NCBI GenBank assembly: GCA_964603095.1
Contig: CAZRTR010000003.1
Location: 1-59,509, forward strand
Length of the DNA: 59,509 bases
Direction: 5' to 3'
DNA from: an uncultured Planctomycetia bacterium
GTDB taxonomy: Bacteria > Omnitrophota > Gorgyraeia > 1-14-0-20-64-10
Below the pieces are notes generated by a model. The model was not told the origin of the DNA, did no database searches, and saw nothing but the letters and a program-made list of their open reading frames with translations. The position numbers and the translations under genes were made by a program. Shown piece by piece: positions 7,848-54,798 of this stretch; within the stretch, counting starts at the first letter, position 1, and every line of letters begins with the position of its first letter.

Positions 7848-8801
7848 ATGGAAGCGGCGAGATCACCGTACATCAAGCATCTCTATGTCTGCGTGAACAG
7901 GCGGGATCCTGGGGTCACCTGCTGTTCGCATGGAGGTGGAGAGGCGATCAAGGAGAGGATAAAGGCCTTTGTCAAAGCCAACGGCTTGAAAGGCAAGGTG
8001 CGGGTCAGCTCCTCCGGCTGCATGGACCTGTGCGCCCAGGGGCCCAACGTGATGGTCACCCCGGACCACCTCTGGTACCACGGGGTCACCCTGGAGGATG
8101 TCGACCGGATCATTGAGGAGCAGCTGGCGCCGCTGGTGAATCAGGGACAGTCCCCTTCGGGGACAGTCCCGTCACCTCATTCCCACATCCGGGCTTTTCT
8201 CCTGGATCTGGGCAACGTTCTGATCCAGTTCGATCACATGCAGGCGGCTAGAACGATCACGGCCAACGCCAAGGCGACCCCGGAGGAGCTGTACCGGATG
8301 TTTTTCGAATCGCCGCTGATCGTCCAGCATGACGAGGGAAGGATCACCACCCGGGATTTCTACGAGGAGCTCAAGAGGATGATTGGGTTTACCCTCTCCT
8401 ACGGCGCCTTCCTCGCCGTTTGGAACGACATCTTCACGGAGAATCAGGAGATGACCGCTTTTGTACGACGGCTGCTGAGCCAATATCCCTGCTTTCTGAT
8501 CTCCAACACGAACCGGCCTCACTTTGAGTTCTGCCGGAAGCGGTTTTCGATCCTGAACGAGATGAACGGCTGGATCCTCTCCTACGAGGTGGGGGCCTTG
8601 AAGCCCAAGCCGATCATCTACCAGCGGGCGCTGGAGATGCTCAGGATTGCCCCTTCCCAGGTCTTCTACATCGATGACCGGACCGATCTGATCGAGGCGG
8701 GGCAGCGGATCGGATTCCAGACGCACCGGTTCACCGGGGTGGAGCCGCTCGTCGAGGAGCTGAAGCAAAGGGGAGTCGGCGGCCTTCCTCGGCTTGGCTA
8801 G
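7848..8801 (+). CDS. fusion protein: thioredoxin-like [2Fe-2S] ferredoxin domain + HAD-superfamily (YihX-like) phosphatase domain
   Basis: The N-terminal domain has Cys in VCVNRRDPGVTCC...GCMDLC. The C-terminal domain has the DLGNV motif I and a HAD-IA-like core. The linker is encoded by a palindromic repeat. Confidence 0.75.
   Translation: MEAARSPYIKHLYVCVNRRDPGVTCCSHGGGEAIKERIKAFVKANGLKGKVRVSSSGCMDLCAQGPNVMVTPDHLWYHGVTLEDVDRIIEEQLAPLVNQGQSPSGTVPSPHSHIRAFLLDLGNVLIQFDHMQAARTITANAKATPEELYRMFFESPLIVQHDEGRITTRDFYEELKRMIGFTLSYGAFLAVWNDIFTENQEMTAFVRRLLSQYPCFLISNTNRPHFEFCRKRFSILNEMNGWILSYEVGALKPKPIIYQRALEMLRIAPSQVFYIDDRTDLIEAGQRIGFQTHRFTGVEPLVEELKQRGVGGLPRLG
8144..8170. repeat. palindromic repeat family A (GGGACAGTCCC), 2 units, translated in frame
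   Basis: The sequence gggacagtcccc-ttc-ggggacagtccc encodes QGQSPSGTVPS in the inter-domain linker. Confidence 0.85.
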
Positions 8802-12103: not shown

Positions 12104-12512
12104 TCAATTTCTGGACGTGGCGGTGGCGGTGATCGAGCGACAGGGCCTGTATCTGATCACCCAGCGGATGCCGCAAGATTCTTTCGGGGGATCGTGGGAG
12201 TTCCCCGGCGGAAAGGCGAATCCCGGCGAAGGGATGGAGGAATGCCTGATCCGTGAGATCCGGGAGGAGCTGGGGCTCTCGATTGCCGTGAACGTCAAGC
12301 TGGCCGAGGTGGAGCACCATTACCCTCACCGATCGATCCGCCTGCACTGTTATCGGTGCCGGATCCTGGAGGGGGAGCCGCAGACGATTGAATGCGCCGC
12401 CTGGCGCTGGGTGGTCCCGGAGGAGCTGAGCCAATTCCAGTTTCCACCCGCCAGCAGCCCCCTCATCGCCCAACTTCAGAAGTTCGGTCATGGTGAGCCT
12501 GTCGAACCATGA
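12081..12512 (+). CDS. NUDIX hydrolase (MutT-like)
   Basis: Nudix box GGKANPGEGMEECLIREIREELG. The last residues (GHGEPVEP) are encoded by a family C repeat. Confidence 0.75.
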   Translation: MGGGSLPDQFLDVAVAVIERQGLYLITQRMPQDSFGGSWEFPGGKANPGEGMEECLIREIREELGLSIAVNVKLAEVEHHYPHRSIRLHCYRCRILEGEPQTIECAAWRWVVPEELSQFQFPPASSPLIAQLQKFGHGEPVEP

Positions 12513-12547
12513 CCGTCCATCCTTCGACGGGCTCAGGATGAACGGAC
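12486..12547. repeat. hairpin repeat family C, two adjacent units
   Basis: First unit: ggtcatggt-gagcctgtcga-accatgacc. Second, imperfect hairpin has the loop ttcgacgggctca (reverse orientation of the same loop). Confidence 0.8.
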
Positions 12548-13353: not shown

Positions 13354-13380
13354 GGGGTCTGACCCCGCGGGGTCAGACCC
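13354..13380. terminator. palindromic repeat (GGGGTCTGACCCC x2) between convergent genes, likely bidirectional terminator
   Basis: The hairpin ggggtctgacccc-gc-ggggtcagaccc sits exactly between the stop codons of suhB and ORF 13380..13994. Confidence 0.5.
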
Positions 13381-15053: not shown

Positions 15054-15104
15054 GGGACTGTCCCCGTCTTGTTACCAGCAGGTAGCTCCAAAGGGGACTG
15101 TCCC
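15054..15104. repeat. palindromic repeat family A, 2 units, intergenic
   Basis: Units gggactgtcccc (15054-15065) and ggggactgtccc (15093-15104) lie between the two trxB-like genes. Confidence 0.8.
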
Positions 15105-16919: not shown

Positions 16920-16968
16920 GGTGTCTGACACCGTTTTGTCTGTTGAAAAGGTGTCTGACACCGTTTTT
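16918..16968. repeat. palindromic repeat family B (GGTGTCTGACACC), tandem 30-nt units
   Basis: aaggtgtctgacaccgtttt occurs twice, between the SDR stop and the glpK start. Confidence 0.85.
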
Positions 16969-18445: not shown

Positions 18446-18460
18446 TCAATCCACGCGCCG

Positions 18461-18487
18461 TTCGCCCTGAGCTTGTCGAAGGGCGAA
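18461..18487. repeat. hairpin repeat family C, intergenic glpK-glpD
   Basis: ttcgccc-tgagcttgtcgaa-gggcgaa. Confidence 0.8.
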
Positions 18488-18494
18488 TGAGCTG

Positions 18495-24801: not shown

Positions 24802-24820
24802 AAGGTGGCGGGTCGACCCG
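24798..24820. repeat. 23-bp perfect direct repeat, right copy
   Basis: Overlaps the vapC stop codon. Confidence 0.9.
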
Positions 24821-27264: not shown

Positions 27265-27283
27265 AGGATCTATTATAAGATTG

Positions 27284-27303
27284 ATCCTCGCTTTCGCGAG
27301 GAT
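27284..27303. repeat. hairpin repeat family D
   Basis: atcctcgc-tttc-gcgaggat lies in the divergent lplA/aceE intergenic region. Confidence 0.8.
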
Positions 27304-27308
27304 GACGT

Positions 27309-29813: not shown

Positions 29814-31016
29814 ATGGAGATCCGGGTTCCTCAACTGGCCGAAGGGGCCGACACCGGGACGGTGGTGAATATCCTGGTCTCGGAAGGGGACCGGATCCGG
29901 AAGGGGCAGACGATCCTGGAGCTGGAGAACCAGAAGGCGGTGGCCCCGATCCCCTCTCCGCAGGCCGGCGCCGTCTCGAGGATCCATGTGAAGGTGGGGG
30001 ATCCGGTGTCGGTGGGGCAGGTGCTGATCACCCTTTCCGAGGGGGAAGGGGAAGCCCTTCGACGCGCCGGCCCTGAGCGACGTTCGTCCTTCGACTATGC
30101 TCAGGACGAACGGAGTCGAAGGGCTCAGGACGAACGGAGGGGGCAATTGGCGCCGGTCTCCGCCAGCGGAGCCCCGCCGCCGGCCTCTCCCTCCATCCGG
30201 AAGATGGCGGCCCAGTTGGGGATTGACCTGACCCGGGTCAAAGGGTCGGAGCCGGGCGGGCGGATCACGGTGAAAGATCTTCAGGATTACCTGAAGGAGA
30301 TTCAAAAGGGGGCCCCGCCCCCCCATCGGAGGATCGATTTCGCCCAATGGGGGCCGGTCACGAGGAAACCGCTGACCTCGCTGCGAAAAGCGATCGCATC
30401 CGGTGTCACCGACTCCTGGAGGACGATCCCCCACGTCACCCTGTTCGACGAGATCAACATCGCCCGGATCCTGGAGCTGAAGGAGAGATACACTCCCGGC
30501 TACCAGGCGCAGGGAGTCTCTCTCACGATCACCGGCTTTTTCCTGAAAGGGGTCGTCTCGGTTCTCAAGATCTACCCGATTTTCAATTCTTCGCTGGATG
30601 AGGAGACCGAGGAGATCATCTTGAAAGGGTATCACCATATCGGCGTGGCGGTCGACACCAAGGCGGGGCTGATCGTCCCGGTCTTGAAGGATGTGGACAA
30701 GAAGTCTCTCCTGGTCCTTTCGCGGGAGCTGGACCAGCTGGCGCAGCGGACCCGGGAACGGAAGATCTCTTTGGAGGAGCTTCAAGGGGGAACCTTCACC
30801 ATCTCGAACCAGGGGGGGATCGGAGGGGGGCACTTCACCCCGATCATCCGGAAACCGGAGGTGGCGATCTTGGGGGTGGGCCGAGGAAAAGAGAATCGGG
30901 CGCCGGTCTCACTCTCCTACGATCACCGGGTGATCGACGGGGCGGACGCGGCCCGTTTCATGGTGGCTCTGGCCAAGGCGCTGGAGTCATTCCCCGAGGA
31001 ACAGGTGAGGATTTAA
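29814..31016 (+). CDS. aceF: dihydrolipoamide acetyltransferase (E2)
   Basis: Lipoyl domain (LENQKAVAPIPSP), PSBD (PSIRKMAAQLGIDL) and catalytic SYDHRVIDGADAARF. Confidence 0.88.
   Translation: MEIRVPQLAEGADTGTVVNILVSEGDRIRKGQTILELENQKAVAPIPSPQAGAVSRIHVKVGDPVSVGQVLITLSEGEGEALRRAGPERRSSFDYAQDERSRRAQDERRGQLAPVSASGAPPPASPSIRKMAAQLGIDLTRVKGSEPGGRITVKDLQDYLKEIQKGAPPPHRRIDFAQWGPVTRKPLTSLRKAIASGVTDSWRTIPHVTLFDEINIARILELKERYTPGYQAQGVSLTITGFFLKGVVSVLKIYPIFNSSLDEETEEIILKGYHHIGVAVDTKAGLIVPVLKDVDKKSLLVLSRELDQLAQRTRERKISLEELQGGTFTISNQGGIGGGHFTPIIRKPEVAILGVGRGKENRAPVSLSYDHRVIDGADAARFMVALAKALESFPEEQVRI
30081..30137. repeat. hairpin repeat family C, 1.5 units, translated in the E2 linker
   Basis: cgttcgtcc-ttcgactatgctca-ggacgaacg plus a partial copy, encoding SSFDYAQDERSRRAQDERR. 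Confidence 0.85.
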
Positions 31017-31024
31017 TGGGAATC

Positions 31025-31057
31025 CCGTTCGTGGTTCGACAGGCTCACCACGAACGG
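31025..31057. repeat. hairpin repeat family C, intergenic E2-E3
   Basis: ccgttcgtgg-ttcgacaggctca-ccacgaacgg. Confidence 0.85.
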
Positions 31058-31073
31058 TACCCATGGACTTAAG

Positions 31074-33782: not shown

Positions 33783-34979
33783 ATGGCAATCCGAATGAAT
33801 CGCACAATCCTCTCCTGGTGCCTGTACGACCTGGCCAACACGATCTTCGCCATGAACATGACCAGCTACTATTTCCCGGTTTGGGTGGTGGTCGACCGGG
33901 GCGGGACGGAGCTGGCGTACAGTTTGGCCTTCGGGCTGTCGATGTTCGTTTCGGCCCTGTTCATGCCCCGGGTGGGGGCCGACTCGGATCGCAGCGGCGG
34001 GAGGATCCCCGCCTTGATCGGCTGGACGTTGGGCTGCGTCGGATTGACCGCCGCCTTAGGAAGCATCTCCCACCTGCCGCTGGCGTTGATCGTCTTCGCC
34101 GGAGCCAACTTCTGCTATCAGTTGGCCGGGATCTTCTACAATGCGCTGCTTCCGTTTGTCTCCCCGTCCGATCGGATCGGGAAGGTCTCCGGCTACGGGG
34201 TCGCTCTGGGGTACGTCGGGACCTTGGTCGGGATCCTGGCCACCACCCCGATCGCTTTCCACTGGGGCCGGCAAGCGACTTTTCTGCCCACCGCACTCCT
34301 GTTCCTGATCTTGTCGCTCCCCTGCTTCTTCTGGGTGAAGGACACACCCCTGTTGAAAACGGTGTCAGACACTGTTTTCAACAGGGTGTCTGACACCGAA
34401 GTGCGTGGTTTCCTCTTGGCCTCATTCTGGGGCCTGAGCGCCGTCAGCACCGTCATCCTGTTCATGTCGGTCTACGCCAAACAGGCGATCGGTTTCAACG
34501 ACGCGACTCTGCACCGGTTCCTCCTGTTTTCCACCGGTGTGACGATCGTCGGCTCCCTCGGCTGGGGCTGGCTCACGGATCGGATCGGCGGCTACCGAAC
34601 CTTAGGGATCGTTTGGGCTCTGTGGGCTTTCGTTTTCGCCTTGGCGGCGGTCAGCAGAAATCCGATCCTGTTCTGGGGGCTGGGAAGTTTGGCCGGGGTG
34701 GCGCTGGGCGGGACCTGGGTCGCCTCCCGGGTGCTGCTGGTCGAGTGGGTCGGCCCGGAGAGGGTGGGGGAGGCCTTCGGGCAGTTCGGGCTGGTGAGCC
34801 GGCTCTCGTCGATCCCGGGCCCGGTCGTCTGGGGATTGATCCTCTGGGGGGCGGCGCCCCTGGGGATGGAGCGGTACCGGCTCGGGATGGCGGCCCTTCT
34901 GGGGTTCGTTCTCGTCGGTGGATGGCTGTACTTTCGATTGTCCAAAGGAATCTCTGATACAATGGAGAGAAAGCGATGA
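33783..34979 (+). CDS. MFS transporter (UMF1/Atg22-like)
   Basis: About 12 hydrophobic helices and N-terminal SWCLYDLANTIF. The central loop carries a family B repeat. Confidence 0.8.
   Translation: MAIRMNRTILSWCLYDLANTIFAMNMTSYYFPVWVVVDRGGTELAYSLAFGLSMFVSALFMPRVGADSDRSGGRIPALIGWTLGCVGLTAALGSISHLPLALIVFAGANFCYQLAGIFYNALLPFVSPSDRIGKVSGYGVALGYVGTLVGILATTPIAFHWGRQATFLPTALLFLILSLPCFFWVKDTPLLKTVSDTVFNRVSDTEVRGFLLASFWGLSAVSTVILFMSVYAKQAIGFNDATLHRFLLFSTGVTIVGSLGWGWLTDRIGGYRTLGIVWALWAFVFALAAVSRNPILFWGLGSLAGVALGGTWVASRVLLVEWVGPERVGEAFGQFGLVSRLSSIPGPVVWGLILWGAAPLGMERYRLGMAALLGFVLVGGWLYFRLSKGISDTMERKR
34349..34398. repeat. palindromic repeat family B, translated inside the MFS central loop
   Basis: tgttgaaaac-ggtgtcagacact-gttttcaaca-gggtgtctgacacc encodes LLKTVSDTVFNRVSDT. 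Confidence 0.85.
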
Positions 34980-39371: not shown

Positions 39372-40634
39372 ATGATCAAGCAAACGAAGATTCAAGCTAT
39401 CCCGATCTGGCTACTCATCTTCACGCTGGCCATCCCGCCTACTTCCGCCCACGCCCTGCGGCACGCCGTTCGCCCTGAGCCTGTCGAAGGGCAGACCCTG
39501 TGCAACATGAACGCCGAGCGTGCCGGCCTCGAGGAGGAGCTCACGCGAGCCCTCACCGGCTCCGCCGGGCTGGAGGAGAAGAAGCGGATCGCGAGGAGGG
39601 ATCTGCTGGCATGGGGCATTGGGGTGGCATCCGGGGTGCCGGCCACGTTGGCGGCCCTGGCGGTCAGAGAGGCCCTGTGGAGGGGTCACTCGACACTACC
39701 GATGGTTCGACTTCCCATCCCCCTGCCCAAGGCGTCTGTCGGAGAGAAGGACCTCCGGGTGAATCTGCCTGAGGTGTTGGCAGGTCGGGTGGCGGTCCCG
39801 TATCTGCTGATCGGTGACCGGTATCAGCCGCAGCCCTCCCTCAAGACCGTTCCGAGCGATGGAGTTGTGACGTTCCGCATCCAATCCGAGGATCCGGAGG
39901 AATTGTACGTTAACTGGTGGAAGGCCAGAGGGATTCGTATCGTCGTCTTTGAGGACCCAAAAGAGGCGCGGAAGGGCAAAGAAGCGATCATTGTCGTTGC
40001 GATTGGAAAACCAACCATTTTTGGACGTGCCTCGGCCGCCATCATCCGGGGCAAGCTGCCTTCTCTATCGGTTGAGCCGGAGGTGACGATTCAGCCGCCC
40101 GCTGGGTTGGAGGAGGTTCCTCGACTGGCCTCAGCCCTCCGGGGTTTCTTCGCCAACCAGCGATTGACTTCCGCCCCTGTTCCCCAAGAAACGTTGACCG
40201 TTGTGGATTTGACGGCGCCGACAGGGGTCTTGTTGGCGCCGGAACTGCCTCCCGGTGTCATCGGAATCGTCCGGCGGGAGGATTATCCGACGATTCTGCA
40301 GGTGGTTTCTGCAGAGCGGGCCCTTCCGAGGCAAAACGAGCATCTCTTCTTCCTTGAAGACTACCCGGATTTCGTCGAGGCGGTCTGGAGCGTTGTTTCA
40401 AGAAGCGGGTCGGATTTGGAGGGGCTGCGGCTCATCACTGGGCGATCGGGTGAGGAGTTAGGCGGTTTGATCCAGCGATTGAGTGGGCAAGGCCTGGAGA
40501 TCCATCTCGTTCGTGTCAAAACGGCGCAGGATATCCTCAAGCTCCTCTGGGTAAACGACCAGTCCCGTTCCGGTCTGGAAGAACTCCTCCAGCGATCCCA
40601 AGCCAACTGGGTTGCCCTGGCCGATTATCTCTAA
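39372..40634 (+). CDS. hypothetical protein with four xGLEE motifs, N-terminal signal-like segment and RR-hydrophobic segment
   Basis: 420-aa ORF. Its N-terminus resembles the giant ORF's (..SAHALRHA vs ..SYALRQT, followed by GLEE motifs). xGLEE codons lie at 39522, 39564, 40101 and 40569. ARRDLLAWGIGVASGVPATLAALA is Tat-signal-like. ATG 39507 is an alternative start. Confidence 0.65.
   Translation: MIKQTKIQAIPIWLLIFTLAIPPTSAHALRHAVRPEPVEGQTLCNMNAERAGLEEELTRALTGSAGLEEKKRIARRDLLAWGIGVASGVPATLAALAVREALWRGHSTLPMVRLPIPLPKASVGEKDLRVNLPEVLAGRVAVPYLLIGDRYQPQPSLKTVPSDGVVTFRIQSEDPEELYVNWWKARGIRIVVFEDPKEARKGKEAIIVVAIGKPTIFGRASAAIIRGKLPSLSVEPEVTIQPPAGLEEVPRLASALRGFFANQRLTSAPVPQETLTVVDLTAPTGVLLAPELPPGVIGIVRREDYPTILQVVSAERALPRQNEHLFFLEDYPDFVEAVWSVVSRSGSDLEGLRLITGRSGEELGGLIQRLSGQGLEIHLVRVKTAQDILKLLWVNDQSRSGLEELLQRSQANWVALADYL
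39468..39492. repeat. hairpin repeat family C (partial), translated
   Basis: gttcgccc-tgagcctgtcgaa-gggc encodes VRPEPVEG, inserted right after the HALRHA segment. Confidence 0.8.
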
Positions 40635-41526: not shown

Positions 41527-42312
41527 GTGCGCCGAGTTTACGTCGATGTCGGGGGATTGACCTGCCCGAAGAAAGGATCGAAGTCGGTGGTGGAGGCGCT
41601 GAACCGGGCGATCCGGCGGGCCGGGTTGGAGCAGGAGGTTCAGGTGATTCCCCGGGGCTGCTTCGGGCTGTGCAACCTGGCCCCGAACCTGTACATCGAG
41701 CCGGACGGGATCTGGTACTCCCGATTCACCGTCCGGGACGCCTCGATCATCGTCCGGAAGCATCTGGTGAAGGGAAAGCCGGTCACCCGGCTCATCCATT
41801 ATCCGGTTCGGCGGGAAATCAACGGAAAGAGAGGAGGTGTTCGGATGCCGGAGACACTCGTGGCACGGGAAGTGGAGGTGGGGGAGATCGCCCCCGATTT
41901 CGCCCTCAAGGATCAGGACGGCAAAGAGGTGGCCCTCTCCAGCTTTCGGGGGAAGAAGAATGTGGCGCTTTGCTTTTACCCCTTCGACTGGAGCCCGGTC
42001 TGCACGACGGAGAACTGCGCCTTGACGGAGGATCTGCCGAAGTTTGAAGGCAAGGACACGGTGATCCTCGGGGTCAGCTGCGACTCCCATTTCTCCCACA
42101 AGGCCTGGAGGGAGAGCATGGGGTTGAAGCAGACCTTGTTGAGCGATCTGAAGCGGGAGGTGTCGAAGAAGTACGGGCTTTTCTTCGAGGATCTGAACTG
42201 CTCGAAGAGGGCCACCGTGGTGATCGACCGGTCGGGGAAGGTGATCTTCAAGAAGGTTCAGGAGATCAAAGTGCCGAGGAACAATCAAGAGATTATCGCT
42301 GCGCTCAAGTGA
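41527..42312 (+). CDS. fusion protein: thioredoxin-like ferredoxin domain (3 Cys) + peroxiredoxin (Bcp/AhpC-TSA) domain
   Basis: The N-terminal domain aligns with ORF 7848 (LTC...GCFGLC, WY). The Prx part has [13 protein letters not shown]. Confidence 0.78.
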
Positions 42313-42319
42313 CGAAGGC

Positions 42320-42362
42320 ATCCTCGCGCAAGCGAGGATCTGATTCCCGCTTTCGCGGGAAT
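42320..42362. repeat. hairpin repeat family D, two tandem units
   Basis: atcctcgc-gcaa-gcgaggat and attcccgc-tttc-gcgggaat lie between the Prx stop and the nuoB start. Confidence 0.85.
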
Positions 42363-42371
42363 GACGGAGAA

Positions 42372-44816
42372 ATGTCAGGACAGTCGGTAGAGCAAGGGCT
42401 AACGGAGGATCAGATTTTGGAGCAGGAGGTCCGCCGGCATGTGCTGGTGACCCCGTGGGACCAGCTTCTTAAACTGGTCGACCCGATCTACAACTGGGGC
42501 CGGAGGAACTCCCTCTGGCCGCTCCAGTTCGGGCTGGCCTGCTGCGCGATCGAGATGATCTGCACCGCCGCCTCACGCTTCGACATCGCCCGGTTCGGGG
42601 CGGAGCTGTTCCGGGCCTCCCCCCGCCAGGCCGATCTGATGATCGTCTCCGGAACCGTGACGAAGAAGATGGTCCCGATGATCGTCCGGCTGTACGACCA
42701 GATGCCGGAGCCGAAGTATGTGATCTCGATGGGGGCCTGCGCCACCGCCGGCGGGCCGTTCAAGGAGGGGTACAACGTCGTCTCCGGGATCGACAAGTTC
42801 CTTCCGGTCGATGTCTACATCCCCGGCTGCCCCCCCACTCCCCAGGCGCTGCTTCACGCCCTGATCACGCTGCAGAAGAAGATCGACGGGCAGTCGATCG
42901 GCCAGGTTCGCTGGTACGCCAAGGAGGCGCCGCCGGAGATTCCGGTGCCGGAGCTGGGCCCGGATCTGGTGGATGTCCGACGGGCGGAGGAGATCAAGCA
43001 AAAGTGCGCCGGGCCAGGCGTCGAGCAGAAACCGGCGGCCCTTCCGACGATGATCCCGGCCCCGACGAAGACGGATGAGCGGACCCGGATCGTCGAGCCG
43101 AGCCGGCTTCTGGAGACGGCCCGGGAGATGAGGAACAACCCCGATTCGGCGTTGGATTACCTGGCCAATCTCACCTGCGTCGATTACCAGGACTGTTACG
43201 AACTGGTCTACCACCTTTACTCCATCAAACATTACCGTCCGCCGCTGGCTCTCAAGGTGCGGGCGAAGAAGGAGGACCCGAGGATTCCATCGGTCGTTTC
43301 CATCTGGCCCGGGGCCGATCTGCAGGAGCGGGAGGTCTGGGACCTGTACGGGGTCCGGTTCGAGGGTCACCCGAACCTGAAACGGATCCTGATGTGGGAA
43401 GGGTTCGAGGGCCACCCGATGCGGAAAGATTACCTGGAGCCGTATTACGAAGCGCCGGGGAAGATCTTCCCCAGCCGGTGGAAGGAGGGGCGCCATCAGC
43501 GGGCGGAAGAACGGGTTGCTTTTTCCGATAACGTTAGATACCCACCTGGATTTGATCCGACACAGGGACAGTCCCCTTTGGAAAAGGGACAGTCCCCTTT
43601 AGATCGCCTCCCAGAGGGCGCTACTTCGGGGACAGTCCCTGCGGGGACAATCCTTGGGGGGACTGTCCCTTATGAAGAATTGACTCCGGTCACCTCCCAG
43701 TCGCTCGAGTCCCTCAAGACCGACACCCTGGTGATCAACCTCGGCCCCCAGCACCCTTCCACCCCTGGGGTCTTCCGGATGAAGGTGGTGGTGGACGGCG
43801 AACGGATTGTGAAGCTGGAGCCGGTGATGGGCTACATGCACCGGAACCACGAGAAGATCGGGGAGCGGAACACCTATCTCATGAACTTCCCCTACACCGA
43901 CCGGCTGGATTACATCTGCTCGATGTCGAACAACCTGGGCTACGCCCTGACGGTCGAAAAGATGCTGGGGTTGAAGCCCCCGGAGCGGGCCGAGTATATC
44001 CGGGTGATCATGGCGGAGCTGACCCGGATCGTCAACCATTTCTGGGCGATCGGGTTTCTCCTGAACGATCTGGGGGCCTTCTTCACCCCGGCCCTGTACG
44101 CCATCGAGGAGCGGGAGCTGATCCTGGACCTGTTCGAGATGGCCTCCGGCTCCCGGATGATGTGCAACTACATGCGCTTCGGCGGAGTGGCGGCCGATCT
44201 GCCGGACGAATTCTTCCCGATCTTCACCTCCCTGATCCATGACCGGCTGCCGAAGGGGATCGAGCAGATCGACCGGTATCTGACCCGCAACGAAATTCTG
44301 CTCAGCCGCTGCCGGGGGGTGGGGGTGCTTCCCCGGGACGCGGCGGTCGCCTATTCCGCGGCCGGGCCGGTTCTGCGGGGTTCCGGCGTCCCGTACGACG
44401 TCCGGAAAGCGGAGCCCTACTCGATCTACGACCGGTTCGATTTCGAGATCCCCACCTTCCCGGAGGGGGATGTCTACGCCCGGTACCGGGTCCGGATCGC
44501 GGAGATGTGGCAGTCTTTGAAGATCCTCCGCCAGGCCTTCCGGGACCTTCCGAAGGGGGAGATCCTGGCCGGCAAGAAGCTCTGGAACATCCGGGTGCTG
44601 GCCGGGGAGGCGTACGGGCGGGTGGAGAATCCGAAGGGGGAGCTGGGTTTCTATATCGTGAGCGATGGGACCGACCACCCGTACCGGTACCATGTGCGGG
44701 CCCCTTCCTTTATCAACCTAACCGCATTGGGGCTGATGTGCCAGGGGCATCTGGTGGCCGACGTGGTGGCGATCCTGGGCTCGATCGACATCGTTCTCGG
44801 CGAGACGGATCGATAA
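42372..44816 (+). CDS. nuoBCD: fused NADH-quinone oxidoreductase subunits B, C and D
   Basis: NuoB: [22 protein letters not shown]. NuoC: [18 protein letters not shown]. NuoD: [16 protein letters not shown] 42372 with a ggaga RBS is preferred over track start 42309, which would translate the repeats. Confidence 0.88.
43565..43669. repeat. palindromic repeat family A, five units, translated in the NuoC-NuoD linker
   Basis: Units at 43565, 43586, 43628, 43643 and 43656 encode [36 protein letters not shown]. Confidence 0.88.
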
Positions 44817-44855
44817 TGGGGTCTGGCTCTTTTTTACTGGGGATCAGGAGGGTTG

Positions 44856-44882
44856 GTGAAAAAGTGCCTGGCCCCTTTTCAC
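44856..44882. repeat. degenerate palindromic repeat (gtgaaaa-core-ttttcac), intergenic nuoD-nuoI
   Basis: 7-bp inverted arms flank agtgcctggcccc. A further degenerate unit, ggggtctggctc, lies at 44818. Confidence 0.55.
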
Positions 44883-44883
44883 A

Positions 44884-45513
44884 ATGAAGATTTATGGCTT
44901 AGAGCTTTTACGGGGCCTCGGAATAACGCTGAAGCACTTCATCTTCAGCTACACGGCCGGGATCCGGCGGGGTTTCCGCAATCGGCTGCGGGGGCATGTT
45001 CGCCAACACCCGGGGGAGAAGGGGATCTTCACCGTCCAGTACCCGGAGGAACGGCTGAAGGTTCCGGAGCGGTTCCGGGTGCTGCCGGTCCTGATCTTTG
45101 ACGGCAAGCAGGGGGAGAGTTGGGCGACCGAGACGGAACGGTGCACCGCCTGCGGAATCTGCGCCAAGGTCTGCCCTCCGCAGTGCATCTGGATCGTGCA
45201 GGGAAAGGATCCGACGGGGAAGCCGATCGCCAAGGCCTCCGAGTTTACCATCGATGTGGATGTCTGCATGAACTGCGGCTTCTGCGCCGAGTACTGCCCC
45301 TTCGACGCGATCAAGATGGATCACAAGTTCGAATGGGGCTCCGGTGAGCGGCAGAATTCCCACATCTTCGACATCGACAAGCTTCATGTCTCGACCGAAT
45401 ATTACGCCAAGACCCACCCGAAGGCCTGGGCCGAAGAAGAAGCCCATCGCAAGGCGGAGCAAGCGAAGAAGGCGGCCGCCGCGGCCGCCAAACCGGCGGG
45501 AGGGCAGGGGTGA
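44884..45513 (+). CDS. nuoI: NADH-quinone oxidoreductase subunit I (2x[4Fe-4S])
   Basis: CTACGICAKVCP and CMNCGFCAEYCP, plus an Ala/Lys-rich C-terminal tail. Confidence 0.88.
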   Translation: MKIYGLELLRGLGITLKHFIFSYTAGIRRGFRNRLRGHVRQHPGEKGIFTVQYPEERLKVPERFRVLPVLIFDGKQGESWATETERCTACGICAKVCPPQCIWIVQGKDPTGKPIAKASEFTIDVDVCMNCGFCAEYCPFDAIKMDHKFEWGSGERQNSHIFDIDKLHVSTEYYAKTHPKAWAEEEAHRKAEQAKKAAAAAAKPAGGQG

Positions 45514-45872
45514 GCTACAATCTGAATTACCTGTTCCTGGGGTTGTTCTTCATCGGGGCGATGGTGGTGCCGCTTCTGCCGATCGTTCTGGCCCGATTCG
45601 TCGCTCCCAAGAGGCCGGGGCCGAACAAACTGGATTCTTATGAGTGCGGGATGGAGACCGAGGGGGACACCTGGGTCCAGTTCCGGATCCAGTATTACCT
45701 GTTCGCGATCCTGTTCGTGATCTTCGATGTGGAGGCCCTCTTCCTCTTCCCCTGGGCGGTGATCTTCCGGGAGGCCGGGATCTCCGGGTTGATCGCCATG
45801 GGGGTTTTCCTGGGGGTGCTGGCGTTGGGGCTGGTCTACGCCTGGCAGGAGGGGGCGTTGGAATGGGACTGA
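45510..45872 (+). CDS. nuoA: NADH-quinone oxidoreductase subunit A
   Basis: 120 aa, 3 TM, with YECGME and FDVEALFLFPW. GTG start overlaps the nuoI stop. Confidence 0.88.
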   Translation: MSYNLNYLFLGLFFIGAMVVPLLPIVLARFVAPKRPGPNKLDSYECGMETEGDTWVQFRIQYYLFAILFVIFDVEALFLFPWAVIFREAGISGLIAMGVFLGVLALGLVYAWQEGALEWD

Positions 45873-46990
45873 CGCTGCCGGCTTGGCTCCTCACGCTGAT
45901 TCAACTGATTGTGCCGATGGCGGTGATCCTGGCGGCGGCGCCGGTCGGGATGATGTACCTGACTTGGGCAGAGCGGAAGGTGATCGCCCGGATGCAGGAC
46001 CGGTTCGGCCCGAACCGGGTCGGACCCTATGGATTGCTCCAGCCGGTCGCCGATATGATCAAGATGTTGACGAAGGAGGATATCGTTCCCTCCGGAGCCG
46101 ATCGGTTGTGCCATTTCCTGGCCCCGGTGCTGATCGTGGTGCCGGCCCTGTTCCTCTTCACGGTGCTTCCGTTCGGGGAGGAGTTGGTCGCAGCGCCGCT
46201 GACGACGGGGCTGCTTTTCTTTGTGGCGATCGGATCGGCCGAGACGCTGACGATCTTCATGGCCGGCTGGGGATCCCGGAACAAGTTCTCCTTGCTTGGT
46301 GCCGTCCGGACCGCTGCGCAGCTGGTGGCCTACGAGGTGCCGTTTGTTCTGGCCCTGGTGGTGGTGCCGATGGTGACGGGGTCTCTCAACCTGGTGGAGA
46401 TTGTCCGGCAACAGCAGGGGCATTGGTTCTTCTTCACCCCGTGGGGGTTCGTCGCCTTCTTCCTGGTTCTGACGGCCGGCCTGGCGGAGGTGAACCGGAC
46501 CCCGTTCGACCTGCCGGAGGCGGAGTCGGAGATCGTGGCCGGGTTCCACACCGAGTACAGCGGGATGAAGTTCGCCCTCTTCTACATGGCGGAGTTCTTG
46601 AGCGCCTTGGCGCTGGGGGCCCTGTTGAGCGTCCTGTTCCTCGGAGGGTGGGACGGTCCGGCCCCGGTCGCCGGTTGGATCTGGATGGTTTTCAAGACCT
46701 TGGGGATGGTTTTCGTGATGATCTGGATCCGGGGGACCTTCCCCCGCTTCCGGATCGATCAGCTGATGCGGATGGCCTGGGTGGTGATGATCCCGATGAC
46801 CCTGGCGAACCTGGTGGGAGCGGCGATCTGGTGTCTGGCAGAGGGAATGGGTCGGATTTTCTGGTCGGCCTCGGCGCCGGCGGTCACCTTCCTGGTGACG
46901 ACCCAACTGTGGCTCCGCCCGAAGCCGCATCTGACGGCGAAATGGGTCGAACCGGTTCTAGAGGGCTTGACGGAACCGCCGCGGGAATGA
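45863..46990 (+). CDS. nuoH: NADH-quinone oxidoreductase subunit H
   Basis: Internal ATG of track ORF 45644. Contains AERKVIARMQDRFGPNRVGPYGLLQP and PFDLPEAESEIVAGFHTEYSG. Confidence 0.9.
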   Translation: MGLTLPAWLLTLIQLIVPMAVILAAAPVGMMYLTWAERKVIARMQDRFGPNRVGPYGLLQPVADMIKMLTKEDIVPSGADRLCHFLAPVLIVVPALFLFTVLPFGEELVAAPLTTGLLFFVAIGSAETLTIFMAGWGSRNKFSLLGAVRTAAQLVAYEVPFVLALVVVPMVTGSLNLVEIVRQQQGHWFFFTPWGFVAFFLVLTAGLAEVNRTPFDLPEAESEIVAGFHTEYSGMKFALFYMAEFLSALALGALLSVLFLGGWDGPAPVAGWIWMVFKTLGMVFVMIWIRGTFPRFRIDQLMRMAWVVMIPMTLANLVGAAIWCLAEGMGRIFWSASAPAVTFLVTTQLWLRPKPHLTAKWVEPVLEGLTEPPRE

Positions 46991-47017
46991 GATACTGAGT
47001 ATAAAAGGGAGGAGAGG

Positions 47018-47335
47018 ATGGAGACAACTGGAAAGTTTGTTAGGGTAGCGGCCACGTCCGAGATTCCGCCGGGGGAAGGGCGGTGCTTCGAGACGGAGGG
47101 GCGGGAAATCGCCGTTTTCAATCTGGGCGGCAGTTTCTATTGTATCGACAACACCTGCACCCACGCCGGCGGCCCTCTGGGAGAGGGAACGGTGCAGGGG
47201 GAGCAGGTGGAGTGTCCGTGGCATGGCGCCAACTTTAACGTGAAAACGGGTCAGGTCTTGAGCGCCCCGGCCGCCGAGGGGGTGGCCTGCCACAAGGTTC
47301 GAGTCAACGGCTCGGACATCGAGGTCGAGTTTTAG
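47018..47335 (+). CDS. small Rieske-type [2Fe-2S] protein (NirD/ferredoxin-like)
   Basis: CTHAGGPL...CPWHGANF. Confidence 0.85.
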   Translation: METTGKFVRVAATSEIPPGEGRCFETEGREIAVFNLGGSFYCIDNTCTHAGGPLGEGTVQGEQVECPWHGANFNVKTGQVLSAPAAEGVACHKVRVNGSDIEVEF

Positions 47336-47408
47336 TTTCCAGCTTTGCCAGGTTTCTAACTTTGCCAAACCTATCCTGGCGAGCTCAACAGGGAGGACTG
47401 AGGGAACG

Positions 47409-47720
47409 ATGTCTTACGTGATTACCGGCAAGTGCTTAGGGGAACAGTACGCTTCCTGTGTGGAGGTTTGTCCCGTGGATTGCATCTATCCCGGGGATCA
47501 CCAGGGGGAAAAATTCATGGTGATTGACCCGGAGATCTGCATCACCTGCGGGGCCTGCCTGCCCGTCTGTCCGATCGGGGCGATCGTCGAGTCGGAGGAT
47601 TACGATCCGGAGTTCGCCAAGGTGAACGCGGAGTTGTCCCCGAAGTTCAAGGTGAACCCCAAGGTGACCCCGCGGCCTTCGAACGATCCTCCTCGAAAGC
47701 CGACCAACAAACTCGTCTAG
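47409..47720 (+). CDS. ferredoxin, 7Fe (3Fe-4S + 4Fe-4S) FdxA-like
   Basis: CLGEQYASCVEVCPVDCI and CITCGACLPVCP. Confidence 0.85.
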   Translation: MSYVITGKCLGEQYASCVEVCPVDCIYPGDHQGEKFMVIDPEICITCGACLPVCPIGAIVESEDYDPEFAKVNAELSPKFKVNPKVTPRPSNDPPRKPTNKLV

Positions 47721-47729
47721 CCGCTTCAT

Positions 47730-49304
47730 TTGCCCAACTCCCAGGAGCAGATTAAGGAGAGGATCGGCAATCCTTTCCTGGTCCGCGAACGAATCGAGGC
47801 CGCGGCGAAGGAGGGGTTCACCACCTTAACCGAAGACGACAAGTTTCTGGCCAAGTGGTACGGGCTGTACACGCACCGCAAGGAGCCCGGCTTTTTTATG
47901 CTCCGGCTCAAGATCCCCAACGGCTTCCTGACCTCGGCTCAATTAAAGACGATCGCCCGGATCGCGACGGAGCAGAATAAAGATTTCGGGGACATCACCA
48001 CCCGCCAGGATATCCAGCTCCACTGGATCAAGACGGAGGAGGCCCCGGCGATTCTGGAAGAACTCAAAGGGGTCGGGATCTCCACGCTGGGGGCCTGCGG
48101 GGACATCATGCGCAACCTGGTCGGCTGCCCGGTGGCCGGGGTGGACGCTCAGGAGTATTTCGACGCTTCCCCGGTCTTGATGGAGGCGAACCGCTTCTTC
48201 CTGGGCAACACGGAGTTCGCCAACCTTCCGCGGAAATACAAGATCTCCATCGCGGGCTGCCGGGACCAGTGCCAGCAGCCGGAGATCCAGTGCGTCAGCT
48301 TTGTCGGGATGGAGCGGCGAAGAAACGGGACGGCGGAACTCGGCTTCGATCTGCGCGCCGGCGGGGGGCTCTCCACCAAATGGTACTACGGACAGCGGCT
48401 GAACGCCTTCGTCAGACCGGAGCAGGTCCTCCCGGTCTTGAAGGTAATCACCGAGATCTACCGGGACGCGCCGGACTACCGGAAGAGTCGGGCCCGGGCT
48501 CGGCTGAAGTATCTGGTGGCCGACTGGGGGGTGGAGAAGTTCCGGGCGGCGATCCAGGCGAGGATGGAGTTCCCCCTGGAGGAGACCGGCCCTTATGAGG
48601 AGCCGCTCGACACCTACAAGGATCATGTGGGGGTGCATGAGCAGAAGCAGCCGGGGCTGTTCTACGTCGGAGTCCCGGTGCCGGTGGGGCGGATCACCGG
48701 GGGGCAGATGAGGAAGGTGGCGGAGCTGGCGGAGCGGCACGGGAATGGGACGGTCCGGCTCACCGTCCGTCAGAATCTCCTAATCCTGAATATCCCGAGG
48801 GACCGAGTGGCGGCCGTTCTGGAGGGGTTGGAGTCGGTGGAGCTCAAAGTCAACGCCTCCCCGATTCTTCGGGGGGTGCTGGCCTGCACCGGGATCGAGT
48901 TCTGCCGCCTAGCCGTCACCGAGACCAAGGCCCGGGCGATGGAGATTGTTCGGTACCTGGAGTCCCGCGTTGCTCTGGAGGAGCCGCTTCGGATCCATGT
49001 GACCGGGTGTCCCAACACCTGCGCCCAATCCCCGATCGCCCATATCGGGCTGCAGGGCTCCCAAACCAAGGTGGGGGATCAGACGGTGGAGTCGTACGAT
49101 GTCGCGGTGGGAGGGCAGCTGGGCCGCGACCGGGCGTTCAACCATTTCGTTCTTCGGAAGATCCCCGCCACGGAGGTCAAGGTTCGGCTGGAGCGGCTGC
49201 TGCTGGGATACAAGAGGAACCGCAATCCGGGAGAGCTGTTCAACGACTTCTGCAAGCGGGTGGGGGATCAGACGGTGGTGAAACTCCTTTCCGCGGAAGA
49301 GTGA
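47730..49304 (+). CDS. ferredoxin-dependent nitrite/sulfite reductase (NirA/Sir family, siroheme-[4Fe-4S])
   Basis: Duplicated NiR/SiR ferredoxin-like and 4Fe-4S domains, with CTGIEFCRLA...GCPNTCAQ. TTG start. Confidence 0.85.
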   Translation: MPNSQEQIKERIGNPFLVRERIEAAAKEGFTTLTEDDKFLAKWYGLYTHRKEPGFFMLRLKIPNGFLTSAQLKTIARIATEQNKDFGDITTRQDIQLHWIKTEEAPAILEELKGVGISTLGACGDIMRNLVGCPVAGVDAQEYFDASPVLMEANRFFLGNTEFANLPRKYKISIAGCRDQCQQPEIQCVSFVGMERRRNGTAELGFDLRAGGGLSTKWYYGQRLNAFVRPEQVLPVLKVITEIYRDAPDYRKSRARARLKYLVADWGVEKFRAAIQARMEFPLEETGPYEEPLDTYKDHVGVHEQKQPGLFYVGVPVPVGRITGGQMRKVAELAERHGNGTVRLTVRQNLLILNIPRDRVAAVLEGLESVELKVNASPILRGVLACTGIEFCRLAVTETKARAMEIVRYLESRVALEEPLRIHVTGCPNTCAQSPIAHIGLQGSQTKVGDQTVESYDVAVGGQLGRDRAFNHFVLRKIPATEVKVRLERLLLGYKRNRNPGELFNDFCKRVGDQTVVKLLSAEE

Positions 49305-50398: not shown

Positions 50399-50424
50399 TA
50401 TCCTATTAACCATGGAGTCATGGG

Positions 50425-54098
<3,674 letters not shown>

Positions 54099-54153: not shown

Positions 54154-54798
54154 ATGATGTTGCGACGGGCGTCCTACTGGGTGACGGGGTGGGTTCTGGC
54201 GATGCTCTTGACGGCGCCGATCCTGCTGTTTCAGGGCCGCGCCGCCTCCCACCGGGTTTCCTTCTCCTCTTCAGAGATGGCCCGGACCCAGGGACCTTTG
54301 GCCGCGCCGGTCCGGCTGGTGGAATACAGCAACTTCCGGTGTCCCGCCTGCCATGAGGTTCAGCCGACCCTGGCTCATCTTCTCGGCCGATACCCCGGCA
54401 AGATCCGGTATGAGTTCCGGCATTTCCCGGCGGCGAACGACCGCCGCTCGGTGATGGCCCATCTGGCGGCCGAGGCGGCGGCCGCCCAAGGCCGATTCTG
54501 GCCTTACCACCATCGGTTGTTTCAAGACCGGGCCCGACGGATGAACGCCTCGAACCCGTTGGAGTCGTTCCTCCAGTTCGCCGTGGAGTTGGGTTTGGAT
54601 GAAGATCGTTTCTCGATGGCGTTCGTCGATCCGGAGACATTGAAGCGTGTGGAGCAGGATCTGAACGCCGGTCGGGCGCTGGGGGTACGGGCCACTCCGG
54701 CCTTTTTCATCCAGGGCCATGTCCTGGTCGGGCCCCGTCAGTTCGAGCAGGAGGCGGAGAAATGGATCCAGGAAGCCCTTCAACCACCGGCAGCCTAG
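54154..54798 (+). CDS. DsbA-family thiol:disulfide oxidoreductase, membrane-anchored
   Basis: N-terminal TM helix and a FRCPAC active site. Confidence 0.8.
   Translation: MMLRRASYWVTGWVLAMLLTAPILLFQGRAASHRVSFSSSEMARTQGPLAAPVRLVEYSNFRCPACHEVQPTLAHLLGRYPGKIRYEFRHFPAANDRRSVMAHLAAEAAAAQGRFWPYHHRLFQDRARRMNASNPLESFLQFAVELGLDEDRFSMAFVDPETLKRVEQDLNAGRALGVRATPAFFIQGHVLVGPRQFEQEAEKWIQEALQPPAA

Follow-up and report, generated by a model that had tools for sequence, protein, structure and literature searches.

Short palindromic repeats between genes and in frame within protein linkers of an uncultured bacterium

The window, that is, the whole 59.5-kb stretch of DNA analysed here, from a genome of 62% G+C, holds short palindromic repeats of at least five families, grouped in 13 clusters. 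Seven of these clusters are intergenic, five lie wholly within ORFs of unrelated function and one straddles the end of a gene; non-coding DNA represents 7% of the window yet holds seven of the 13 clusters (P about 1e-5). In all the genic copies the reading frame passes through the repeat uninterrupted, and all of them lie between or outside the protein domains delimited by Pfam. The families are probably REP/REPIN- or MITE-like interspersed repeats, short, G+C-rich and hairpin-forming, whose genic copies survive only in permissive sites compatible with the frame. All the evidence comes from metagenome assemblies, namely this single window and a few related contigs.

The elements measure about 27-70 nt, are G+C-rich and hairpin-forming (9-20 residues if translated), or form arrays of such units. 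Family A has the core GGGACWGTCCC, with exact or one-mismatch copies at 8144, 8160, 15054, 15094, 43565, 43586, 43629 and 43659; its 17 strand-matches compare with 3.15 +/- 1.88 in shuffled sequence, and none of 100 shuffles yielded 17 or more. Family B (GGTGTCWGACACC) has four copies against 0.05 expected, and family C (core CGTTCGYCCTGAGC) nine matches against 1.65 expected (0/100 shuffles). The predicted folds of the repeat clusters are strong (z between -3.3 and -5.5), with the exception of the decayed copy at 39466. Direct inspection shows all six frames of the family A 11-mer core to be free of stop codons. Family A units are almost all perfect 11-mers, and decayed copies also exist (43644, 39466 and the second unit in contig L086). 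Nested architectures are seen in the nuo array of the window and in contig L003. Rfam holds no family matching any repeat in the window or in the repeat-rich loci, and a tRNA search of the window returned none. All the repeat sites listed in a preliminary description of this DNA were recovered at their coordinates, with every family far above chance by shuffles or expectation, and this includes the intergenic copies at 15054, 16920, 18459 and 31023. Families D (27282-27305 and 42318-42368) and E (13354-13380) had been overlooked in that description. The intergenic copies are the following.

13354..13380, no strand assigned: family E 27-nt pair GGGGTCTGACCCCGCGGGGTCAGACCC, between convergent genes.
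15054..15104, no strand assigned: family A pair with internal hairpin, between thioredoxin-reductase-like genes 14071-15015 and 15227-16162 (-31.7 kcal/mol, z = -4.8).
16920..16962, no strand assigned: family B pair, between an SDR gene (stop 16919) and a glycerol-kinase-like gene (ATG about 16973).
18459..18489, no strand assigned: family C hairpin, between glpK-like and glpD-like genes.
27282-27305: third copy of the newly added family D.
31023..31059, no strand assigned: family C-variant hairpin, between the E2 and E3 genes.
42318..42368, no strand assigned: two family D hairpins (CCTCGCGCAAGCGAGG, TTCCCGCTTTCGCGGGAA), between a peroxiredoxin gene and the nuoBCD ATG.

One of the genic clusters is an array of family A units within a fused complex I gene.

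42372..44816, plus strand: nuoBCD, fused NADH-quinone oxidoreductase B, C and D gene, host of the array (Pfam Oxidored_q6, Complex1_30kDa and Complex1_49kDa; homologs; solved NuoCD/NuoD chains).
43565..43669, plus strand: family A array in the NuoC-NuoD linker, with units at 43565, 43586, 43629, 43644 (degenerate) and 43659, coding 35 residues.

The likely ATG of nuoBCD is that at 42372, the ORF being open from 42309 and running through the family D hairpins. With three domains in one polypeptide, collinear with its homologs, the gene is an ordinary member of the fused complex I subunit class. The repeats make up residues 398-433 of the 814-residue protein, after the 30-kDa (NuoC) domain and before residue ~443, the first to align to solved NuoD chains. 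The unit at 43644-43654 (GGGACAATCCT), which brings the linker to five, has two mismatches to the core, and a small inner palindrome occupies positions 43600-43623. The RNA of the array is predicted to fold into nested hairpins (-63.6 kcal/mol, z = -4.1). The five-unit count is taken from the assembly alone, copy number within palindromic arrays being prone to mis-assembly, and an AlphaFold model of NuoBCD (31 sequences) has a mean pLDDT of 50 and is uninformative on the linker.

Among relatives the C-D linker occurs in three states: with five units (the window), with a two-unit 27-mer at identical boundaries (L001), and with nothing (P0002/L002). The window's array exceeds the two-unit version of L001 by 78 nt; between the two the units are 23/24 identical and the flanking codons about 75% identical. 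Near-identical units within diverged flanks agree better with insertion that was recent or recurrent, with homogenisation or with selection acting on a DNA or RNA motif than with old neutral passengers. Also, an ortholog 80% identical to NuoBCD has a C-D linker devoid of the insert, and a few homologs carry family A peptides in the B-C linker.

A second family A copy lies in the linker of a ferredoxin-HAD fusion protein.

8144..8170, plus strand: family A 27-nt pair GGGACAGTCCCCTTCGGGGACAGTCCC in the ferredoxin-HAD linker (gene 7848-8801), coding GQSPSGTVP (hairpin -20.8 kcal/mol, z = -5.1).

This pair is the reverse complement of the nuo-linker pair of L001 and codes residues 100-108, between the two Pfam domains. 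In the AlphaFold model of the protein (mean pLDDT 89), residues 102-109 are the sole internal segment scoring below 50. The same linker harbors at least five palindrome families across different lineages: of about 100 fused homologs, at least 14 have linker peptides with motifs of family A, B, C or D, and the linker DNA of L087 contains a family E unit and another hairpin. As judged from these sequences, the linker is an insertion hot spot that no fewer than five palindrome families have reached independently. The GTVP linker peptide of P0186 (L265) was considered as a further family A case and rejected, its DNA being a different, GGTACC-type palindrome. In contigs L003 and L004 a family C element in this linker breaks the frame, leaving two overlapping ORFs whose stop and start overlap as ATGA. 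Since the element supplies both the stop and the start, the repeat splits the ferredoxin-HAD gene rather than fusing it. The split arrangement occurs in three contigs, two of which are shown, from ENA and JGI.

The remaining genic copies, including the one that straddles a gene end, belong to families B and C.

12485..12547, plus strand: family C two-hairpin element at the MutT/IMPase junction (-34.9 kcal/mol, z = -3.9).
30081..30137, plus strand: family C hairpin and half-unit in the E2 linker (gene 29814-31016), coding RSSFDYAQDERSRRAQDER.
34348..34397, plus strand: family B element in the central loop of an MFS transporter (gene 33783-34979), a 39-nt near-perfect palindrome with a second unit, coding LLKTVSDTVFNRVSDT (z = -5.5).
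39466..39492, plus strand: decayed family C half-element in ORF 39372-40634, coding VRPEPVEGQ (residues 32-41).

In the E2 protein the repeat codes residues 90-108, between the lipoyl (2-74) and E3-binding (122-157) domains, and in the MFS transporter residues 189-205, the loop having the same length as that of the closest representative, P0247. The MFS loop and the E2 linker are no longer than those of their homologs, so net insertion is not demonstrated at either; the E2 alignment is a distant one, the homologs among the matches listed having at most 52% identity, belonging mostly to Verrucomicrobia and Proteobacteria and showing no close synteny. The contigs from the E2 homolog scan provided 1.29 Mb of background sequence. 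At the MutT/IMPase junction, the last nine codons of MutT (12081-12512) and its TGA stop (12510-12512) are supplied by the family C element, which has also displaced the start of IMPase, with loss of the start codon. The element is responsible for the present arrangement, in which both genes share one frame with a single TGA between them; in L087 the junction is an empty site and the genes overlap at GTGA. At no other site does a repeat come close to joining two genes. The copy in ORF 39372, a protein with no Pfam match, sits just past an apparent signal peptide (judged by eye).

The placement of family A in the ferredoxin-HAD linker, of family C in the E2 linker and at the MutT C-terminus and of family B in the MFS central loop agrees with the preliminary description. 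Two of its sites are to be amended: the NuoC-NuoD linker has the five family A units reported, one of them with two mismatches, but Pfam identifies the gene as a NuoB-C-D triple fusion; and the family C copy at the N-terminus of ORF 39372 is present there but as a decayed half-element with no significant fold (z = +0.56), not a hairpin. Its suggestion that such repeats are tolerated only in flexible segments is supported by the position of the genic copies between or outside domains, the occupation of one linker by at least five families and the low pLDDT of the repeat-coded segment.

These patterns can be accommodated as follows. The repeats would have spread, now or formerly, through the genome, most of the surviving copies being intergenic. 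Survival within a gene would require a length that preserves the frame, a unit lacking stops in the frame used, and a disordered linker, surface loop or protein end in which to reside, where the ribosome would translate the hairpin into a short peptide of arbitrary sequence (GQSP, GTVP, VRPEPVEG, SFDYAQDE and others) that is presumably neutral. Pre-existing linkers of already fused proteins would thus serve as permissive landing sites and not be products of the repeats. Insertion of repeats into each other would generate arrays such as that of nuoC-D, and insertions that are not frame-neutral would split a gene or displace its start or stop codon. Transposases, including RAYT, were searched for by Pfam in the called genes of the window except nuoH and the POR genes, and none was found. 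Comparison of filled with empty sites defines no target-site duplication, so we infer mobility only from these sites and from copy number; the differences between relatives would then reflect insertions, presumably by a dedicated enzyme. The only candidate, a CTT duplication, was read by eye around the inner 24-nt palindrome at 43600-43623.

Family A is not confined to the window. Metagenome contigs ranging from 27 to 77% GC, and viral contigs too, contain pairs of GGGACWGTCCC, again in frame within conserved enzymes, and in-frame copies recur across many unrelated data sets. The spacers of the doublets peak at 5-6 nt and at 20-30 nt; in many doublets both units have the same orientation, each unit being itself a palindrome, and the units are near-perfect while internal spacers and flanks diverge. 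Depending on frame and orientation, one DNA unit gives GQSP and GTVP (within one linker) or DSP, DCP and GLSP (elsewhere). The reading of the same unit in different frames and orientations, and its occurrence untranslated between genes, indicate that the DNA is conserved rather than the peptide. A length of 27 nt (nine codons) was considered as an intrinsic frame-neutral design and rejected as a rule, in-gene pairs elsewhere having spacers of 3-7 nt. All-against-all BLASTP of 1,349 ORFs from 80 metagenome loci revealed no gene family recurrent beside the family A copies; the 27-mer had no match in INPHARED phages or PLSDB plasmids, and in full-text literature searches neither the family A 11-mer in connection with bacteria nor the family C peptides turned up in any paper. 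Tentatively, the GGGACWGTCCC hairpins could be one homologous, phylum-crossing family of miniature elements, partly phage-borne, with an 11-mer core recognised by a putative conserved protein and, being open in six frames, able to colonise the coding linkers of essential enzymes, and to remain there, in many bacterial phyla; in places they would perhaps be selected and not merely tolerated. We regard this broader proposal as possible rather than likely.

Selection could also act on the hairpins as cis-elements, involved in protein binding, ribosome pausing between domains or mRNA stability and processing, with translation as a side effect. The near-perfect units amid diverging flanks and spacers, the presence of the core in viral contigs and over such a range of GC content, and the strong predicted structures are all consistent with this, and a location at the boundaries of domains would be apt for pauses during co-translational folding. 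However, orthologs do without repeats at the same sites, unrelated palindrome families occupy one linker in different lineages, copies such as those at 43644, 39466 and the second L086 unit have decayed, and the ferredoxin-HAD split and the loss of the IMPase start are damaging. Nor does any Rfam family match, and scanning the nuo region for terminators gave no signal within the linker. A cis-acting explanation of the repeats is unlikely.

In the preliminary description, the in-frame repeats were also proposed to have bridged formerly separate genes. Insertion between neighbouring genes would in this case have erased a stop and a start, creating the NuoC-D and ferredoxin-HAD fusions. The repeats do lie exactly at domain junctions; the MutT/IMPase element, by setting formerly overlapping genes in one frame a single TGA apart, shows bridging to be mechanically possible; and the presence of HAD-only homologs in distant taxa implies that the ferredoxin-HAD fusion did arise at some point. 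The alignment of orthologs, however, goes against this proposal, as the fusions are found in homologs without repeats. All of the best 120 NuoBCD homologs (120/120) carry the three Pfam domains in one protein, with labels including Omnitrophica, Chloroflexi, Blackallbacteria, Obscuribacterales and Isosphaeraceae. The window's insert of ~33 residues is absent from 30 of 30 aligned homologs, among which P0003 (81% identity) is the only case with a family A pair, in a short two-unit version, at the C-D place. NuoCD fusions of the same fused-subunit class as the window's nuoBCD are well known in organisms lacking these repeats (E. coli 7awt_D and 7p61_C; 7q5y_B), family A in the C-D linker being found only in the window and, in shorter form, in L001. 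Likewise, about 90 fused ferredoxin-HAD homologs were found, down to 45% identity, many with repeat-free linkers, and in close relatives the one case of separate ferredoxin and HAD genes has a repeat between them. The fusions are older than the repeats, which did not create them, and a bridging origin is very improbable.

Collapse or chimeric joining of repeats during assembly or binning is likewise very improbable. The window and all its relatives are metagenome contigs and palindromic arrays are difficult to assemble, but at every site the frame is intact and so are the conserved residues on either side, the independent assembly L001 has the element at identical nucleotide boundaries, the ferredoxin/HAD split is shared by contigs from ENA and JGI, and in-frame copies recur in unrelated data sets. 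Finally, selection of the peptides as flexible linkers, with DNA palindromy incidental, can practically be dismissed: the GQSP/GTVP and Arg/Asp/Glu-rich runs are linker-like (Gly/Pro/Ser/Thr-rich or charged) and predicted to be disordered, but one DNA gives unrelated peptides in different frames, the repeats also stand untranslated between genes, and orthologous linkers are unrelated in sequence.

As interspersed repeats tolerated within genes, the elements find their closest precedent, by analogy, in the Rickettsia palindromic elements (RPEs), and they also resemble REP/REPIN sequences. RPEs are described as palindromic families found between genes and in frame in many unrelated housekeeping genes (Ogata et al. 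2000 Science 290:347; Ogata et al. 2002 Genome Res 12:808; summaries in PMC10969869 and PMC3184786). According to the same summaries, they measure about 105-150 bp, add 35-50 residues, and were described in Rickettsia, an obligate intracellular alphaproteobacterium; the added peptide is regarded as one that the host protein's fold can accommodate, and in these accounts no transposase is encoded within the element (PMC10969869, PMC3184786). Similarly, palindromes of the window are found both in frame in unrelated ORFs and in non-coding DNA, and the peptide lies outside the functional core, as seen from Pfam placement and the ferredoxin-HAD pLDDT. Compared with RPEs on length and host taxon, they differ on both counts, with units of 27-70 nt and another host taxon, the relatives of the host being labelled Omnitrophica; the hosts here are free-living-type MAGs, and the family A core is common to contigs of very different G+C and to viral contigs.

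REP/REPIN sequences are short (20-60 nt), G+C-rich imperfect palindromes mobilised by RAYT, with several families per genome and with doublets whose spaced units form a longer hairpin; classic REPs lie almost entirely outside genes (Bertels & Rainey 2011, PMC3116915; PMC3337134). The window has short, repeated, over-represented imperfect palindromes as well, and the clusters and the nesting are further likenesses. In placement and doublet structure the agreement is partial. Copies are enriched in non-coding DNA, but 5-6 of the 13 window clusters are genic (38-46%) versus about 1% for the REPs of P. fluorescens SBW25, where 14 of 1,067 16-mers overlap genes (PMC3116915); doublets with a spacer are the rule and fold, but many family A doublets are co-oriented, each unit being a palindrome. 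No RAYT gene was seen in the window or beside the 80 metagenome copies. Bacterial MITEs and small repeats (ERIC, BOX/RUP/SPRITE, Correia, Coxiella QMITE, Anabaena MITEs) are known to fuse with host ORFs, MITEs being typically 100-400 bp long with terminal inverted repeats and target-site duplications (PMC3184786, PMC10969869, PMC5896051), and in-frame insertion has precedents in RPEs, ERIC, BOX/RUP and QMITE (PMC10969869, PMC3184786). In-frame internal insertions, 3' or 5' extensions of genes and stops or starts supplied by the repeat (here MutT/IMPase) are shared with them. The present elements differ in being much shorter, essentially a bare hairpin in which the whole element is the palindrome, and in that neither terminal inverted repeats nor target-site duplications could be recognised and no partner insertion sequence was seen.

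By this analogy, the repeats may represent a further form of the Rickettsia-type "selfish DNA inside genes" in an uncultured bacterium. Repeat-derived peptides inflate and distort the protein predictions of these MAGs: N-termini are falsely extended, as by the 21 codons that precede the nuoB ATG, starts and stops are displaced, and genes are split. They may also seed spurious similarity between unrelated proteins; the peptide SFDYAQDE used in the E2 search was itself repeat-derived. The repeats also offer a natural experiment on where proteins tolerate insertions, and gene boundaries are remodelled in both directions, a fused gene being split in a relative while MutT/IMPase in the window stands one stop short of fusion. 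If family A were a single mobile, cross-phylum family with a dedicated recognition protein, it would constitute an undescribed and very widespread class of miniature elements, and would extend the Rickettsia phenomenon to free-living bacteria and phages.

All the repeat sites named in the preliminary description proved to be real, and its central observation, that palindromic repeats are translated in frame within protein linkers and loops, was confirmed with corrections, among them the calling of a triple NuoBCD fusion and the addition of families D and E, which it did not include.

Palindromic repeats of the window
43565, 43586, 43629 and 43659 (within 43565-43669): four copies of the family A 11-mer palindrome GGGACWGTCCC, in nuoBCD (42372-44816, forward strand)
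43644: degenerate fifth family A copy, GGGACAATCCT
8144-8170: family A 27-nt pair GGGACAGTCCCCTTCGGGGACAGTCCC, coding for GQSPSGTVP between the thioredoxin-like ferredoxin and HAD domains of ORF 7848-8801
MFS transporter central loop and SDR/glycerol-kinase intergenic spacer: family B, GGTGTCWGACACC
Five places (E2 linker, MutT end, ORF 39372, two intergenic spacers): family C, core CGTTCGYCCTGAGC...GTCGAAGGGC
27282 and 42318-42368: family D hairpins
13354-13380: family E 27-nt pair (GGGGTCWGACCCC), between convergent genes

Allowing up to one mismatch, GGGACWGTCCC matches the two strands of the window 17 times, against 3.15 +/- 1.88 times in dinucleotide shuffles, none of 100 of which reached 17. 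Four copies of family B and nine matches to family C were found where 0.05 and 1.65 are expected, respectively. For most elements, folding is much stronger than in shuffled controls (z from -3.3 to -5.5). According to a hand-curated gene map, in which 92.9% of the window is coding, 7 of the 13 repeat clusters are intergenic, 5 lie wholly in genes and 1 extends across a gene end, an excess of intergenic clusters with P ~1e-5. Families A, B and E have in common the 13-mer architecture GGNGNC-W-GNCNCC.

The array at 43565-43669 lies inside a single unbroken reading frame (42309-44816) that encodes a NuoB-NuoC-NuoD triple fusion, as assessed with Pfam. The fusion is not limited to NuoC and NuoD. 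The five family A units previously placed in the NuoC-NuoD linker are borne out as four copies and a degenerate one, with a small additional palindrome between units 2 and 3. The array corresponds to residues 398-433, C-terminal to the 30-kDa (NuoC) domain and N-terminal to the first residue aligning with solved NuoD chains (~443), and folds into nested hairpins (-63.6 kcal/mol, z = -4.1). The likely start of the gene is ATG 42372, the 21 codons upstream being read-through of two intergenic family D hairpins; the longest ORF begins at GTG 42309 only because both hairpins are open in that frame (42309-42371), and gene prediction could readily append a spurious N-terminus derived from the repeats. 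The start of the orthologs corresponds to ATG 42372. The genes of this region (42372-53227) are, in order, nuoBCD, nuoI-like, nuoA, nuoH, a Rieske protein, a ferredoxin, a sulfite/nitrite-reductase-like protein, an FAD oxidoreductase and a 2-oxoacid:ferredoxin oxidoreductase, with no nuoEFG or nuoJKLMN adjoining. This order is kept as far as the FAD oxidoreductase in loci L001 and L002 from two relatives (GCA_964372955.1 and GCA_016177405.1); the 2-oxoacid:ferredoxin oxidoreductase genes are present in L002 too, and in L001 their place is taken by a MIP-family gene, after which the locus ends.

The proposal that repeat insertion created the fusions by bridging separate genes is rejected by alignment of the orthologs. 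All three domains occur in one protein in each of the best 120 NuoBCD homologs (52-81% identity), assigned, where a source is given, to Candidatus Omnitrophica, Chloroflexi, Blackallbacteria, Obscuribacterales and Isosphaeraceae, and fusions exist without repeats, as in the L002 nuoBCD (80% identical), the DNA of which has no family A unit. In an alignment with 30 of these homologs, the C-D insert of ~33 residues occurs only in the window protein, the consensus linker being short (DPxxWxPxxEEFxPVTS). The L001 ortholog (81% identical), sister of the window nuoBCD in a neighbour-joining tree, carries exactly one 27-nt pair (GGGACTGTCCCCGAAGGGGACTGTCCC); its left and right boundaries equal those of the window array, the latter exceeding it by 78 nt (26 codons). 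The simplest history is that one pair would have been gained in the common ancestor of both, or twice at the same spot, and that self-insertion of the element would later have enlarged the array in the lineage of the window. In a more distantly related ortholog (L086) it is the B-C linker that has a family A pair. Nearly all family A units are perfect, and those of the window and L001 are 23/24 identical, compared with ~75% identity of the flanking codons, two observations that keep a functional reading alive without favouring it.

At 45-69% identity, ~90 ferredoxin-HAD homologs are full-length fusions, and several (e.g. P0127, P0132, P0192, P0193, P0207) have linkers devoid of repeat-derived peptide, so this fusion predates the family A pair of the window and does not depend on it. 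Its linker stands out as an insertion hot spot. At residues 100-131, a peptide recognisable as repeat-type is present in at least 14 of ~100 fused homologs, and other lineages have linker peptides that match, as motifs at the protein level, family C (HPEPVEGERLHPSTSSGRTE and similar), family D (SRESENLIPACAGMT) and, in one case, a family B-like type. In DNA, the linker of locus L087 contains a family E unit together with another hairpin (L087:10295-10350), and that of L265 (L265:950-985) an unrelated perfect 33-nt palindrome, GGGTACCGGGTACCGGAACGGTACCCGGTACCC, built on GGTACC and read as GVPGTGTVPGT. In the lineage of L003 (2960-3030) and L004 (1375-1445) the fused gene is split by a repeat: the linker holds a nested family C element with a length that is not a multiple of three, and the ferredoxin (112 aa) and HAD (220 aa) parts are encoded by two ORFs that differ in frame and overlap by ATGA within the repeat. 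This arrangement occurs in three contigs, two of which, from ENA and JGI, are shown. A second hot spot lies inside the ferredoxin domain, directly after the CC motif (P0129, P0135, P0137, P0139, P0156), where several lineages have GGxSGAASxSGSHA-type segments differing in length (alignment A2, columns 33-82); the window protein has no such segment after this motif.

The other reading proposed initially, that repeats are tolerated only in flexible segments, is supported. In the AlphaFold model of ferredoxin-HAD (mean pLDDT 89) the sole internal segment with pLDDT below 50 is residues 102-109, in the repeat-coded stretch (100-108); the NuoBCD model was too poor for use. Family C in E2 (29814-31016) occupies the linker from the lipoyl to the E3-binding domain, where it gives an Arg/Asp/Glu-rich stretch in place of the usual Ala/Pro-rich one, the linker being no longer than in homologs of ~50% identity. 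The central loop of the MFS transporter equals in length that of its closest representative (65% identity). For both sites the conclusion is limited to the presence of the repeat in a variable segment and does not extend to net insertion. In ORF 39372, family C is present as a decayed half-element after an apparent signal peptide. The E2 catalytic domain (30990-31005 region) is missing ~19 residues just before SYDHRVIDG that are present in 10 of 10 aligned homologs.

Only at the MutT/IMPase junction does a repeat come close to bridging two genes, with a single stop codon between them. In the syntenic L087, the NUDIX gene ends in ...LENGR, with a stop overlapping the GTG at which the inositol-monophosphatase gene starts (GTGA). 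The window has at this junction a two-hairpin family C element of ~60 nt; MutT ends in ...KFGHGEPVEP, its TGA (12510-12512) lying within hairpin 1, and the IMPase frame, the same as that of MutT, is open from 12513. As its first ATG, GTG or TTG (12615) is downstream of the beginning of the Pfam match (~12564), the native start is gone, and the sole candidate seen is CTG 12549, with AGGA upstream.

Other features were also observed. A 69-nt copy (93% identical) of a glpD-like 3' end flanks a Fic gene on both sides (19919-19987 and 21377-21445). The lower-G+C stretch that follows, which encodes a PD-(D/E)XK nuclease, a PLD-like protein, VapB/PIN and nucleotidyltransferases, resembles an inserted defence or toxin-antitoxin islet (~20000-26500). 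The pirin gene seems to be frameshifted, with the N-terminal cupin in frame 54719-55915, the C-terminal cupin in frame 55510-56175 and the switch at ~55805-55825, near a TTTT run (GGCTACAGGTTTTCGCCTAC); this may be either a sequencing error or real, and bears no relation to the repeats.

With respect to known systems, the anatomy of the repeats is REP/REPIN-like or MITE-like: short G+C-rich palindromes, spacer doublets, several families, intergenic enrichment, nesting, and filled and empty sites between relatives. However, classic REPs are nearly always extragenic, overlapping genes in 14 of 1,067 cases in P. fluorescens SBW25 (PMC3116915), and the high share of in-frame genic copies in the window is rather that of Rickettsia palindromic elements and of further repeats for which fusion with host ORFs is known (PMC10969869, PMC3184786). 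The window repeats are RPE-like in-frame palindromes made of REP-like mini-hairpins, a new variant on a known phenomenon. No Rfam family matches them, or the repeat-rich loci described below. Pfam analysis of the called genes, except nuoH and the POR genes, revealed no transposase in the window, so both mobility and its enzyme are ones that we infer.

The family A core also occurs well beyond the window. When public metagenome contigs were scanned for GGGACWGTCCC pairs with a separation of 3-30 nt, at least 120 stretches were recovered; among the matches listed (80 loci, L088-L167) the contigs have 27-77% G+C, and the 27-mer shared by the window and L001 is found unaltered in contigs with 44-68% G+C. 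Spacer lengths have two maxima, at 5-6 and 20-30 nt, and the longer spacers contain an internal hairpin of variable sequence between exact flanking units (often unit-hairpin-unit). A complete scan of IMG/VR yielded 57 viral contigs with pairs (L208-L264), with at most 5 per contig; the 27-mer is absent from cultured phage and plasmid collections. A background of 1.29 Mb from 80 unrelated genomes contains one single family A unit, and families B, C and E are absent from it. In the metagenome loci, pairs occur in frame within bona fide enzymes, including a NifS-like aminotransferase, FolC, PfkB kinase, SufD, mannose-1-phosphate guanylyltransferase, an ELP3-like radical SAM protein, a CysA-like ABC ATPase (between the ABC and TOBE domains) and a precorrin-methylase/CobB fusion (in the linker). 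A long open frame covers 39 of the 77 pairs that lie away from contig ends, compared with 72% of random positions; in G+C-rich DNA this measure is approximate. No genes recur beside the pairs in these loci, and a literature search found no description of GGGACWGTCCC in a bacterial context. The natural guess for an 11-mer retained in genomes so unlike one another is that a conserved protein recognises it, and the wide spread of the family A core represents an undescribed lead that is worth following up.
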